Source of the DNA: Methanobacteriota archaeon
Lineage (GTDB): Archaea > Thermoplasmatota > Thermoplasmata > Thermoplasmatales > ARK-15
NCBI GenBank assembly: GCA_009758405.1
Contig: WSBC01000008.1
Span: forward strand, 16,705-80,704
Direction: 5' to 3'
Length of the DNA: 64,000 nt
Shown here: positions 6,416 to 62,388 of the stretch, piece after piece
How the letters are laid out: each line of letters starts with the position of its first letter
Position numbering within the stretch: the first letter of the stretch is position 1
The notes under the pieces: generated by a model
What the model saw: the letters and a program-made list of their open reading frames with translations, nothing else
Database searches by the model: none
Told to the model about the DNA's origin: nothing
Translations under genes and position numbers: made by a program

Positions 6416-7585
6416 TTATTTTTCATGGTTTACTTTTTTAAAGAATTTCAATAATATAATAATTGAAGATATTTGAAGAATGATAATGTATAAAACAATT
6501 ATAAGAATCTGGTTAAAGAAATATCCAACAAATATGCTAGATATCAATAACCCGTATCCATAGGAGGTATTTAATGCTCCAAAAACTGACCCTCTGTGTT
6601 CCTCCTCAATATAACTGGCTACAACTGATCTTGTAACTGTATCGTTGATCCCAGTAAATGCACCAAATAATAGACCTAGGAGCATGAAAACTAAAATATT
6701 ATGAAAACTAACCATTGAAATGATTAATATTGCCAATATAGGACCAATAATTATTATTTCCTTTCCAATTTTATCATATGCTATGCCAAAGATAAAGCCA
6801 AATATACCTTCACCCACCATAGCAAGTGTGAATATTAATGTTACCTCATACTGTTCTAAAAATCCCTGAGCCAAAACCAGTATAAATGAGATATGGAAGA
6901 TTCCAGCTGCGCTTAACCCTATGCCAATAAAATAATACATGAGATGCCTCTTTTTAATTCCCCTCTCTATCTTTTTCCTAGGTTCAAAGTTTATCTCCTT
7001 TTTTGAATATTTATAGGAGACATATAAAGATAAAATACTCAAAGTTGCAGGTATTGCCAAAAATAGAAATGCATCTCTGTAACCGTAATTATAAAAAAGC
7101 ATCACGGATATTATTAAAGGGCCTATTACAGCACCTGCCTGATCGAGTAAATTCTGTAATGCAAATGAATATCCAATTCTGTTTTCAGATGCCACTGTTG
7201 AAATAACATAATCCCTTGGTGGAATTCTTGTTGCACGACCCATCCTCTCCATAATGATTAAGATTGATGCAATAATGTAATTATTCGCTAATGCAAGTAA
7301 TGGTACTGCAAAAAGATTGATTGTATAACCTAAAAACATCATCCCCCAGTAGTTTCTTGTCCTATCCGAAATCTTTCCTGAAACGGATCTGAATGAGTAT
7401 CCCAAAAAGTCTCCAATACCTATCACAATACCTAAGGCAAATACGGACCCACCAAGTACATATGTAAAATATTGTGGTATTATACTTCTTGCACTTTCGT
7501 AGGTCATGTCAGCGAAGAAACTCACTATACCTATCAGAATTATTAGCCTCAAATTTGGACTTATTTTCTTTATTCCCTTACTCAT
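6416..7585 (-). CDS. MFS transporter, third gene of the fluoride-riboswitch operon
   Basis: About 12 hydrophobic segments, motif A GKISDRTR, VSFFADMTYESARS N-terminus; start overlaps the upstream ORF stop (ATGAGTAA). Confidence 0.9.
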   Translation of the reverse strand: MSKGIKKISPNLRLIILIGIVSFFADMTYESARSIIPQYFTYVLGGSVFALGIVIGIGDFLGYSFRSVSGKISDRTRNYWGMMFLGYTINLFAVPLLALANNYIIASILIIMERMGRATRIPPRDYVISTVASENRIGYSFALQNLLDQAGAVIGPLIISVMLFYNYGYRDAFLFLAIPATLSILSLYVSYKYSKKEINFEPRKKIERGIKKRHLMYYFIGIGLSAAGIFHISFILVLAQGFLEQYEVTLIFTLAMVGEGIFGFIFGIAYDKIGKEIIIIGPILAILIISMVSFHNILVFMLLGLLFGAFTGINDTVTRSVVASYIEEEHRGSVFGALNTSYGYGLLISSIFVGYFFNQILIIVLYIIILQISSIIILLKFFKKVNHEK

Positions 7586-7958
7586 ATTTAAATTCACTTA
7601 GGATAGTGTACCTTTCTATTAGGTCATCAATTTCTTGATTTTTCCTAATTTCTCTAGAATTTTTTATTTTGTTCAAATTTAAAAATTGTGACATAAGCCC
7701 TGAAAGATTAAATGCAAGAACTTGATTTTCCTTTAATATTTGAAATATCTCAAATTTTAAAGCTGCTATTTTTCCTTCAATCTCAAAACTTTCCTTCCTA
7801 AGGTTCCATAACTTTTCCTTTTTTTCAAGATAATTTTTAAAGAGTTCATTTACTTCTTCCTGTGAAAATTTTTCATCCTTGCAGGGATAGGAAAATATTT
7901 CTACATAATTGATACCAAGCTCTTTCATAATATCTTCAACAAAATCACCTAAGGACAT
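7578..7958 (-). CDS. Hypothetical helical/coiled-coil protein (about 126 aa)
   Basis: ORF with a GGTGA Shine-Dalgarno before ATG 7958; overlaps both neighbours; no recognisable family. Confidence 0.65.
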   Translation of the reverse strand: MSLGDFVEDIMKELGINYVEIFSYPCKDEKFSQEEVNELFKNYLEKKEKLWNLRKESFEIEGKIAALKFEIFQILKENQVLAFNLSGLMSQFLNLNKIKNSREIRKNQEIDDLIERYTILSEFKYE

Positions 7959-8187
7959 TAATCTCACCCTCTAGCTCCTCAATATATTTTTTCATTATTT
8001 CCCTGTCCTTTTCAATTTTATTTTTTAAATTTTGATAATAATTAAGTGAGTATCTTTTTTTACTTATTTCCACCTCAAGCTTTGATATCTCCTCATCAAT
8101 GTATTTTATTTTTTCAATCAGGCAACTTTTAATTCTACATATTACTAGTGAATTATCCTGGCTTAGATTTACATTATTCCTTTCCAT
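7945..8187 (-). CDS. Hypothetical coiled-coil protein (80 aa)
   Basis: Heptad-rich ORF with SD-like AGGTTGAT; first gene after the fluoride aptamer. Confidence 0.65.
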   Translation of the reverse strand: MERNNVNLSQDNSLVICRIKSCLIEKIKYIDEEISKLEVEISKKRYSLNYYQNLKNKIEKDREIMKKYIEELEGEINVLR

Positions 8188-8209
8188 ATAATCAACCTTT
8201 TTTTATTTA

Positions 8210-8255
8210 GTAGGCGTTATCACCAAAAACTGGATTTAAGGCGAACGCCATCGCC
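8210..8255 (-). promoter_or_regulatory. Fluoride riboswitch aptamer (crcB motif)
   Basis: Minus strand GGCGATGGCGTTCGCC-TTAAA-TCCAGTTTTTGG-TGATAACGCCTAC. P1 GGCGA/TCGCC, pseudoknot GGCGTT/AACGCC, small P2 hairpin and terminal CCTAC match the known crcB consensus. TATA-like TTAAATA about 24 nt upstream; ATG 22 nt downstream. Confidence 0.9.
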
Positions 8256-8560
8256 TTTTTTCTATATAGATTTTTAATATTTAAGTATTTTGAATCACAA
8301 TTTTTTTTAGTTTTTAATATACTATTTAAAAAATGACTTTTATCACATAATTTGCTCGTAAAAAAATAATTGAATTTTAGTATGTAAAATAATTTTAAAT
8401 TAGCTAATTAAAAATAAAAATTATGGGCTTGATTTTAAAAAATTATAATTTGATCAAATCGCATTTTATAAAATTCTTTGTAAATTTAAGAATGGATTAC
8501 ATAGAAGATTTAGTTATCCTAAAATTTATTAGGTTTTTAACTTTAAAGATGAGCGTTAAT

Positions 8561-46328: not shown

Positions 46329-46430
46329 TGCCGGGGCCGGGGATCGAACCCGGGGCCTTCGGATTTCCCAAGTCCTTTTTAAAAAAGGAACCCTATGAGT
46401 CCGACGCTCTACCAGCTGAGCCACCCCGGC
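46329..46430 (-). tRNA. tRNA-Met(CAT), elongator type, with a 29-nt intron at 37/38 (46365-46393)
   Basis: GCCGGGGTGGCTCAGCTGGTAGAGCGTCGGA-CTCATA-[GGGTTCCTTTTTTAAAAAGGACTTGGGAA]-ATCCGAAGGCCCCGGGTTCGATCCCCGGCCCCGGCA; BHB-like junction. Confidence 0.92.
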
Positions 46431-49443: not shown

Positions 49444-49531
49444 AATTATAGTAATGCCTTCTTATTATTAAAATTATTTTAAAACTAGTTGAATAAATTT
49501 ATTAAAAATGTTACATTATCAGCTTAGGAAA

Positions 49532-51270
49532 ATGAAAAAAATAAATGAGTTACCTTACCTTCAAAGATGGTTTATTTTAGCAACAATAATAGGGATCATT
49601 GCCGGTTTAGGGGCATTGCTTTTTTATTATGCAATCATTTTTTTCACCTATATTTTTATGAATGTTTTTTTGGGTATAATATTACCATCACCACTGGGAG
49701 AGGGAGGAAATCTAAGTTTTACAATTACTAATACTAGATATATACTCATTCCTATCTCAACCACAATAGGAGGTCTTATCTCTGGACTTTTAGTTTATAA
49801 ATTCGCCCCAGAAGCAGAAGGGCATGGTACTGATGCAGCAATAGATGCTTATCATAACAAGCAGGGTAAAGTTAGGGGTATTGTTATACCTATAAAGGTA
49901 CTTGCTTCCGCAATTACAATTGGTAGTGGTGGAAGTGCTGGTAGAGAAGGACCAACTGCTCAGATATCATCAGGGCTAGGGTCTATAATTGCTGACTTAT
50001 TGCATTTAAATCCTGAGGACAGAAGAAGAGCAGTTGCGGTTGGAATAGGAGCGGGAATAGGTACTATATTCAAAGCACCTATTGGGGGTGCCATACTGGG
50101 TGCGGAAATTCTGTATAAAAGGGATATTGAACCAGAAATAATATACCCCAGTCTAATTGCATCCGCCATTGGCTATTCCATTTTTGGATCTGTAGTTGGT
50201 TTCACACCAATTTTTGGTTACTATTTGGGATCATTCAATCCATTAAGATTACCATTTTATTTTATCCTAGGTGCTGTAACTGGACTATTCGCAATATTTT
50301 ATGTCAAAATATTCTATAAAATTAGATCATTTTTTCAAAAAATGAATATTAATAAATATTTTAAACCAGCAATTGGTGGTCTAATTGTAGGAATTATAGC
50401 CCTATTGTTTCCTGAGGTAATGGGTGTTGGATATGGATGGGTTCAGATATTTATATTAAATAAAATGAATATAATACCTTCATTTGGTCTACCATTAATC
50501 ATTATTCTTTTATTACTTCCATTTTTAAAGGTTCTGGCCACATCATTTTCAATAGGATCAGGGGTAGTGGTGGTGTTTTTGCACCTGGAATGGTGATAGG
50601 TGCATCACTTGGCCTTTTAATGGGAATTCTTTTTAATTTTATAGCCCCTAATATTGTTACATCATATGTACCATTTGTAATTGTTGGTATGCTTTCATTT
50701 TTCGGTGCTGCAGGTAAGGCTCCTCTATCTGTAATGATTATGGTGGTAGAAATGACTGGTAGTTTACAGCTATTACCTGCAGCAATGGTTGCTGTTGCAG
50801 TTTCATACATAGTGTCTGGAAATAATACAATCTATAGGTCACAAGTTCCAACAAGAAAGGATTCACCTGCGCACAAGGGAGAGTATAATACTCCTCTTTT
50901 ATCAACTATAAAAATATCTGACATCCCTTTGAAAGATATAAAGGTGAACTTAAATGATAAAATAAAAAATGCCAAGGATTTAATGGAAGAAAATTCCATG
51001 ATTTCTATACCAGTTGTCGATGATAAAAACACATATGTAGGTATTTTATATTTTAATGATATTATAAATTTAAATAATGAGGAGGTAAAAAAATATACTA
51101 GACCGAGCATAGCTTACATACATATTGATTCTTCTGCTGAAGATGCCTGGGAAATTATGAACCAGTTAAAATCAAGCTGGGCACCTGTGGTAGAGAAGGG
51201 AAGATTTTTAGGAGTTGTAACGATGAATGATATTTTAAATTTTTACAAAAAATTATCAAGGAATATCTAA
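49532..51270 (+). pseudogene. ClC chloride channel/antiporter with CBS pair, -1 frameshift at the G-run 50561-50564
   Basis: [23 protein letters not shown]. Adding one G restores [12 protein letters not shown] and fuses the 362-aa and 226-aa ORFs. May be an assembly error. Confidence 0.85.
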
Positions 51271-62293: not shown

Positions 62294-62388
62294 CCCGGCT
62301 TAGCTCAGTGGTAGAGCGGCGGACTGTAGTGGGAAAAATTTCCGCCGTGGTTATCCGCATGTCCCCGGTTCGAATCCGGGAGCCGGGA
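62294..62388 (+). tRNA. tRNA-Tyr(GTA) with a 23-nt intron at 37/38 (62330-62352)
   Basis: CCCGGCTTAGCTCAGTGGTAGAGCGGCGGA-CTGTAG-[TGGGAAAAATTTCCGCCGTGGTT]-ATCCGCATGTCCCCGGTTCGAATCCGGGAGCCGGGA; C1-G72 tyrosine identity pair. Confidence 0.92.

Follow-up and report, generated by a model that had tools for sequence, protein, structure and literature searches.

Genomic context and operon layout

The window analysed here is a stretch of 64,000 nucleotides (nt) from contig WSBC01000008.1 (assembly GCA_009758405.1) of an archaeon of the order Thermoplasmatales. Its minus strand carries an operon in which a fluoride riboswitch precedes two small open reading frames (ORF1 and ORF2) and a transporter gene of the major facilitator superfamily (MFS). 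The operon, the families of its three products and their relation to fluoride sensing are the subject of this analysis, and the features are collected in Table 1.

Table 1. Features of the riboswitch-headed operon, in window coordinates
Feature	Coordinates	Strand	Description	Basis
Fluoride riboswitch aptamer (crcB motif RNA)	8204-8264	(-)		RF01734 full-model match; covariation in P1 and pseudoknot
TATA-like TTAAATAT	8284-8277	(-)	~22-29 nt upstream of the first P1 base	Sequence reading alone
Shine-Dalgarno (SD)-like AGGTTGAT	8198-8191	(-)	separated by 3 nt from the ORF1 ATG (8187-8185); presumably what the expression platform acts on	
ORF1	7945-8187	(-)	80 aa, small cytoplasmic coiled-coil protein, predicted partner of ORF2	18-member alignment; complex prediction
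ORF2	7578-7958	(-)	126 aa from the ATG at 7958; conserved C-terminal module with invariant G87 and Y117	
MFS_1 transporter	6416-7585	(-)	389 aa from the ATG at 7585	

Read from the letters, ORF2 overlaps ORF1 by 14 nt and the MFS gene overlaps ORF2 by 8 nt, and AGGTTGAT begins 5 nt past the end of the Rfam match, ~12 nt past the last conserved aptamer base. An earlier sequence-only reading of this DNA had reported three overlapping downstream ORFs (80 aa, ~126 aa and an MFS protein), an aptamer ending ~12 nt before the SD-like element, and a leader with no obvious terminator hairpin. All three points hold. The leader between the aptamer and the ORF1 ATG measures 16 nt on the same strand; no terminator hairpin is found in the window leader, and that spacing leaves no room for one between aptamer and ORF1. 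A GGTG-type SD stands at the equivalent aligned position in most of 18 related leaders. The TATA-like element falls within the 235 nt that separate ORF1 from the divergent TruD gene (8423, plus strand). If it is the promoter, the aptamer would open the transcript.

The fluoride riboswitch

The aptamer matches all 64 positions of the Rfam covariance model RF01734 and scores 51.2 bits (gathering score 34; E = 2.8e-11 when the whole window is searched, 1.3e-13 for a 301-base stretch). The fluoride riboswitch claimed in the sequence-only reading, which had named this very model as the check, is therefore real. It is the single copy in the 1.30 Mb assembly (34 contigs, 88.8% complete).

Covariation was assessed in 18 aligned leaders that precede ORF1-like genes in the same order. 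The nine pairs of P1 and the pseudoknot show standard pairing in 162 of 162 cells; 37 cells are altered on both sides, and such double changes occur in five pairs, with compensatory P1 variants such as GGCG/CGCC, GGUG/CACC and GGAG/CUCC. The covariation score was matched by 0 of 500 shuffles, a count that expresses conservation of structure and not a probability, because the aligned leaders are kin; slid controls leave only 42-58% of cells paired. Across 61 genomes of the same order, RF01734 is found at E ≤ 0.001 in 46 and at or above the gathering score in 34. These aptamer counts rest on covariance models, since a pattern (regex) search recovered only 21 of 30 known loci.

This riboswitch class includes translationally acting examples, and archaeal members have reportedly been noted since Weinberg et al. 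in 2010. In the accessible parts of the published accounts, the crcB motif is described from archaea with varied gene cargo, and mutS, K+/Cl- transport and formate hydrogen lyase are among the cargo named (PMC2864571, PMC7266159). The accessible part of another source reports crcB RNA expression in G-plasma and Ferroplasma (10.1101/538918). The window aptamer resembles known fluoride riboswitches in its full-length, high-scoring match, its compensatory changes in P1 and pseudoknot, and its position as a 5' leader on the gene strand. It differs in its cargo, which is neither CrcB nor CLC-F nor any of the other genes named above; it also has no terminator, and the aptamer is probably the start of the transcript. 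The aptamer is present at this locus, and it would be expected to sense fluoride and to switch the operon.

Riboswitch cargo in the order, with no CrcB detected

Downstream sequence was read for 30 aptamer loci of the same order. An ORF1-like gene followed by an ORF2-like gene is the cargo in 18 of the 30, and a PF00146 operon is the cargo in the other 12 (L009, L011, L014, L017-L019, L021, L025, L028, L029, L032 and L005). The latter operons open with a membrane protein of the NADH-dehydrogenase-subunit-1 type and continue with further membrane subunits. As far as the accessible text of the sources goes, PF00146-type 'formate hydrogen lyase' cargo is already known for the crcB motif (PMC2864571, PMC11139923).

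The established fluoride exporters are missing from this cargo. CrcB or CLC stands directly behind the aptamer in 0 of the 30 loci read. The CrcB profile (PF02537) finds no genome above its cut-off in the order (0/61), with 11 of 14 control genomes positive, and it has no match among the three operon proteins or in the window's 88.8%-complete genome. The three-gene operon itself contains no CLC. The sole CLC gene of the genome lies elsewhere in the window (49508-51270, plus strand) and has no aptamer. Near 50590 its coding sequence breaks into two frames (362 aa and 226 aa), owing either to a frameshift or to an assembly error, and the second piece runs into the C-terminal cytoplasmic part. 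Among solved chains, the gene product is matched best by canonical Cl-/H+ exchangers.

CrcB/Fluc and CLC-F were themselves recognised by following fluoride-riboswitch cargo, according to the accessible part of one account (PMC7266159). In the accessible part of another, riboswitch control is given for ~15% of Fluc genes and ~30% of CLC-F genes, and the two exporters are described as usually mutually exclusive (PMC11139923). The window transporter shares with Fluc/CrcB and CLC-F the riboswitch control and a plausible part in relieving fluoride stress, but its fold is a different one (MFS_1). In contrast to the mutual exclusion of Fluc and CLC-F, its subfamily co-occurs with CrcB in several bacterial operons.

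The ORF1-ORF2 family

Neither small protein reaches the cut-off of any Pfam or NCBIfam model. The sequence-only reading had called them orphans, a label that proves wrong because both have relatives. By tblastn and alignment, both proteins have related genes in three families of the order, and an ORF2 profile built from 18 sequences finds 74 representatives at E ≤ 1e-3, 23 of them at E ≤ 1e-10, among 1.84 billion proteins; homology to the tail of DUF6062 proteins (see below) adds to this. Within the order the profile gives 42 matches in 36 of the 61 genomes. Thirty of the 42 copies, in 30 of the 36 genomes, lie 39-393 nt downstream of a same-strand aptamer, which bears out the earlier suggestion that the pair is linked to fluoride. 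An ORF1-like gene precedes the ORF2 relative in all 18 loci read. A search of the wider class finds the profile in 22 of 301 genomes, most of them from the same order.

The family varies in size and in company. In family f3, ORF1 is reduced to 41-54 aa and ORF2 to 63-69 aa, the latter consisting of the C-terminal module alone, and both still stand behind an aptamer. At three loci, a riboswitch-less ORF1'-ORF2' pair lies directly upstream of the controlled pair (L008 765-1464 in G019, G032:C80:7666-8007 and G041:C58:18856-19197), an arrangement that reads as a putative constitutive copy next to an inducible one. In genus g3 the cassette is followed, after a 185-nt gap, by a bacterial-type HU gene (PF00216; L040 1023-1292, with the equivalent place occupied in L041 and L042), which is probably a separate gene.

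Relation to DUF6062 proteins

The longer matches of the ORF2 profile (P0152, P0159, P0190 and P0153) carry an N-terminal Pfam DUF6062 domain and a C-terminal tail that aligns with ORF2. In hhalign, ORF2 residues 10-122 align with tail residues 258-387 over 113 columns (probability 97.8%, E = 7.9e-13). Because this probability is accompanied by conservation of the invariant glycine of LSG and the invariant tyrosine of YLF, the likeness goes beyond coiled-coil composition. The DUF6062 Pfam profile (PF19538) has no match on ORF2, whose C-terminal module aligns only to the tail outside the domain.

A metagenome scan with the fusion proteins yielded 79 DUF6062 loci (L150-L228), in which aptamers were called with an own covariance model, R1, at E ≤ 0.01. 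A same-strand upstream aptamer is present in 44 of the 79, in 22 of these within 88 nt of the match, and 20 of 20 rechecked aptamers pass the Rfam gathering score. The riboswitch-controlled DUF6062 proteins of L150 and L165 carry the ORF2-like tail. In the 38 operons read for gene content, the partners include enolase (9 loci), a prenyltransferase-like protein (12 loci) and an MFS protein (at least 8 loci), as well as a Na+/H+ exchanger, Usp, TauE and a small HEAT-repeat protein. Three DUF6062 loci also contain a two-helix membrane peptide of 71-78 aa.

ORF2 is thus like DUF6062, an uncharacterised double Cys-Cys-Cys-His family (PF19538), in its form with a coiled-coil tail: the two share the tail itself, the place behind fluoride aptamers and the proximity to the same MFS subfamily. 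It is unlike DUF6062 in having no Cys-rich core and in having a separate partner, ORF1, which was not detected in the bacterial operons. No DUF6062 protein was found in the 61 genomes of the order by a search that was positive on G339, and the literature searched contains no mention of DUF6062.

Predicted structure of the pair

The AlphaFold2 model of ORF2 (53-row alignment, mean pLDDT 82.9) comprises two short N-terminal helices, a helix of 67 residues (33-99), a loop and a final helix (108-122). Foldseek against the PDB returns nothing at E ≤ 0.001 for both ORF2 models, and a look-up in the ESM Atlas gave no usable match and no model. A profile search of the PDB with the ORF2 family was discarded as a source of homologues, returning only generic coiled coils such as GCN4 fusions.

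Complex prediction, which the sequence-only reading had proposed, gives ORF1-ORF2 scores of 0.66, 0.68 and 0.68 against 0.06 for the best control. The mark applied to this score is reached by 58 of 80 solved complexes and by 2 of 110 mismatched pairs, a calibration that is only rough because the predictions used own alignments. Between runs, 91% or more of the contacts are shared, and the partner has a pLDDT of 84 or higher. The two proteins run in parallel register, ORF2 residue n facing ORF1 residue n-16 (81 with 65, 43 with 27), and ORF2's C-terminal helix turns back against the pair. ORF1 and ORF2 are therefore predicted to form a cytoplasmic, parallel, heterodimeric coiled coil, in keeping with the earlier description of both as coiled-coil proteins. 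Such a pair would act by binding another macromolecule and not as an enzyme or a transporter. Its binding partner could be a protein target, with DNA as the main rival.

The DNA alternative holds that ORF1-ORF2 is a fluoride-induced coiled-coil transcription factor for genes elsewhere, the MFS gene being one cargo gene among others. ORF2 relatives of the f5 type have ~20 extra N-terminal residues that form one or more strands and two helices, and the top Foldseek rows of the f5 model are rich in ribbon-helix-helix repressors (CopG, PutA, ORF56, omega and Reg576), with a root-mean-square deviation of 1.4-4 Å over 33-43 columns. Weak PSK_trans_fac matches occur in 3 of 18 family members (best E 9e-4), and the pair often stands alone behind the aptamer, as expected of a regulator. 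These Foldseek rows, however, have E values of 2-7, none of them ≤ 0.001, and the Pfam scores lie below the cut-off. The window ORF2 has no strand region in its model and no ribbon-helix-helix profile match. The f3 forms keep nothing but the C-terminal module and still follow an aptamer, so the conserved function cannot lie in an N-terminal DNA-binding domain. A transcription factor is accordingly judged unlikely.

The MFS transporter and its subfamily

The transporter is matched by Pfam MFS_1 (PF07690) at 110.2 bits against a gathering score of 33.4 (E = 1.3e-31). Its subfamily has invariant charged motifs of its own, FADMTYE(G/S)ARS, ERxGKAIRxPPRD and LDQxGAxxGP. It shares with the proton-coupled MFS efflux proteins NorA, LtaA and YajR the MFS_1 profile and distant sequence matches, and differs from them in these motifs. 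The nearest solved structures are MFSD1, LtaA, NorA and YajR (E 1e-8 to 1e-3, with half of the protein covered).

The genomic context of the subfamily, which has at least 549 confirmed loci across bacteria and archaea, was taken from the best 80 of them. In 10 of these 80, RF01734 reaches or exceeds its gathering score upstream on the same strand, in records labelled Freyarchaeota, Nitrospirota, Rhodospirillales, Bacteroidota, Chlorobi-type, deltaproteobacterial, cyanobacterial and Fervidibacter-type. The suspected link of the MFS protein to fluoride thus holds beyond this genome, across several phyla. The gene order aptamer-CrcB-DUF190-MFS occurs in L127, L126 and L080, with a pyrophosphatase in one of them; L085 reads aptamer, Na+/H+ exchanger, Usp, aptamer, MFS, and L087 reads aptamer, MFS, DUF6062, Na+/H+ exchanger. 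In L219, L178, L186, L226 and L150, DUF6062 has a homologue of the window MFS behind or beside it (28-34% identity, E 1e-38 to 1e-64). Because aptamers and CrcB or DUF6062 contexts recur in many lineages, the linkage of this subfamily to fluoride sensing is strong.

Two further loci have unusual arrangements. At L069 (G046:C22:6500-11600, minus strand), a weak aptamer, which at 28.9 bits falls short of the gathering score, precedes two MutS_V ATPases and then a subfamily MFS (33% identity). At L120 (2963-3945, in a Freyarchaeota-labelled metagenome-assembled genome), a second aptamer (45.2 bits) stands right after the MFS gene and is followed by a prenyltransferase-like gene of the same family as in the 12 DUF6062 operons.

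The MFS protein might nevertheless be a general solute or drug exporter that plays no part in fluoride stress, its placement behind the riboswitch being incidental. Its best NCBIfam matches are drug-efflux models, although far below threshold, the nearest solved structures are NorA, LtaA, MFSD1 and YajR-type MFS proteins, 70 of the 80 subfamily loci have no aptamer within 2.5 kb, and relatives contain decayed copies. Against this stand the 10 aptamer-linked loci in several phyla, far above chance for a 64-nt motif, and a share of the same order as the riboswitch control of Fluc (~15%) and CLC-F (~30%) in the accessible part of the source (PMC11139923). The recurrence of the subfamily beside CrcB, DUF190, pyrophosphatase, Na+/H+ exchangers, Usp and DUF6062 also speaks against an incidental placement. 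A role unrelated to fluoride is clearly improbable.

Where the sequence downstream of the small-protein pair could be read, 6 of 16 loci have a transporter behind the pair and the other 10 have none adjacent to it. The window type of MFS follows the pair in G000, G002 and G014, and by coordinates also in G015; a second MFS_1 type, with 24% identity over 88 aa to the window type, follows it in G050, G019 and G023. The sequence-only reading had looked to co-occurrence of the pair with both aptamer and MFS. The part concerning the aptamer is confirmed (30 of 42 ORF2 copies), and the part concerning the MFS holds in only 6 of 16 loci. Its suggestion that the two proteins are accessory subunits of the MFS fails as a general reading on the loci where no transporter is adjacent, and the remote likeness of the two adjacent MFS families weakens it further.

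In a stricter form of that suggestion, ORF1-ORF2 would serve the co-encoded MFS alone, as its cytoplasmic subunit or gate, within one fluoride export machine. The overlapping reading frames fit it, as does the finding that two different MFS_1 lineages follow the pair (families f1 and f5 g8); in L150, moreover, a DUF6062 protein with an ORF2-like tail is directly followed by an MFS of the window subfamily. The 10 of 16 loci lacking an adjacent transporter contradict it, however, as does the distribution of the two components, with this MFS in only 10 of 61 genomes against ORF2 in 36 of 61. In G002 the MFS gene has in-frame stops and the pair is intact. A dedicated subunit is therefore held to be markedly improbable. 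Because the MFS is patchy and decayed beside an intact pair, the small proteins are the conserved core and the MFS comes and goes. Throughout this acidophilic order, the pair is apparently the part that fluoride controls.

The MFS is a plausible candidate for fluoride export. A simple second fluoride exporter is not the sole reading, because bacterial members of the subfamily share operons with CrcB. These shared operons argue for a complementary role as much as for a redundant one, and speak against simple redundancy with the fluoride channel.

Expression platform

Translational control is the candidate that best fits the leaders. In the minimum-energy folds of the seven f5 leaders, a complement of 10-12 nt (AUGGGG.CCCACC with GGUGG.UCCCUAU) joins the SD and start region to the aptamer's 5' half. 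With the aptamer blocked, the start codon is more likely to be unpaired (e.g. 0.00 to 0.62 and 0.06 to 0.63); in some rows of these results the script misassigned the start codon. As modelled, the f5 leaders have a plain translational ON design. In the window leader, CGCCU pairs with AGGU, and the unpaired probability of the SD goes from 0.52 in the free fold to 0.85 with the aptamer blocked.

Since the ON folds are clear in f5 and the effect in the window leader is weak, translational control is probably the platform, a choice made with only moderate confidence. A long-range pairing of sequence 5' of the aptamer with the start codon was considered as a platform and rejected because shuffles equal it; a further reason is that its 5' arm probably lies upstream of the transcript start.

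Interpretation

With confidence only a little above even, we read the locus as a fluoride-induced operon whose three products belong to a widespread, undescribed fluoride response, with the ORF1-ORF2 pair as its core and the MFS as an optional part. The aptamer, the gene order, its conservation, the linkage of aptamers to the MFS subfamily across phyla, and the homology of ORF2 to the DUF6062 tail are directly established.

From these observations we infer which way the switch works, that the complex forms, what the MFS moves and what the pair acts on, as follows. The aptamer would lie at the extreme 5' end of the mRNA and act on translation initiation. In the absence of fluoride, strands of the aptamer could pair with the SD and start region; fluoride binding would tie those strands up in P1 and the pseudoknot, and ORF1 would be translated. 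Translation of ORF2 and the MFS would follow through the overlapping stop and start codons. The MFS might then serve as an optional add-on, most likely a proton-coupled exporter that relieves fluoride stress, and would move either fluoride itself or a solute that accumulates under fluoride.

A number of observations weigh against the fluoride-response reading. At the RNA level, sequestering of the SD is weak in the window's own leader (0.52 to 0.85), and its fold is no better than that of shuffles (z = -1.39). Within the ORF2 family, 12 of the 42 matches in the order are not behind an aptamer, namely three riboswitch-less tandem paralogues, three unlinked paralogues and six weak matches, and RF01734 at E ≤ 1 is found in 0 of 10 non-aptamer or more distant ORF2 loci. 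On the DUF6062 side, 9 of the 10 closest tail fusion loci (L151-L159) have no aptamer, and the ORF1 family was not detected in the bacterial operons. The predicted complex is open to the objection that coiled coils dock easily, and its controls were unrelated natural proteins and not coiled coils. For the MFS, a homologue at E ≤ 1e-20 occurs in only 10 of the 61 genomes, most subfamily loci have no nearby aptamer, and some bacterial members accompany CrcB. Decayed copies are found in G002 (L046, G002:C83), with two in-frame TAA codons, and in G003 (G003:C8:10489-11622), with one; the G003 copy is unlinked, and the ORF1-ORF2 pair beside the G002 copy is intact.

A bolder extension of this reading is that the pair (in bacteria, DUF6062 with the same tail) and the MFS subfamily form a third prokaryotic fluoride-resistance system, in which the MFS is a proton-coupled exporter gated or targeted by the fluoride-induced coiled-coil module and replaces Fluc in extreme acidophiles. 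Extreme acidophiles maintain an inside-positive membrane potential. Under such a potential, a passive channel of the Fluc type would draw fluoride in, and a proton-coupled carrier would expel it. This extension is speculative and rather improbable.

Novelty and significance

The riboswitch class itself is already known. What is new here is the homology of archaeal ORF2 to the DUF6062 tail, the archaeal two-gene form in which a stand-alone tail homologue has a separate partner, and the dominance of this cassette in the riboswitch cargo of an order with no detected CrcB (61 genomes). In the literature searched, with supplementary gene lists outside its reach, no description of a fluoride riboswitch with these genes was found.

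Fluoride is especially toxic under acidic conditions, where it enters cells as HF. Fluoride riboswitches are a guide to fluoride-handling genes, and in this order they point mainly to a coiled-coil cassette of no known family. The cassette, DUF6062 and the MFS subfamily together make up a fluoride-linked gene set that spans both domains. The fluoride tolerance of acidophiles lacking CrcB becomes a testable question, and with it the possibility of a further class of fluoride transporters.

Other features of the window

Two tRNA genes of the window, at 46329-46430 (minus strand) and 62294-62388 (plus strand), contain introns of ~31 and ~26 nt, respectively, after the anticodon loop, a position that is usual in archaea.

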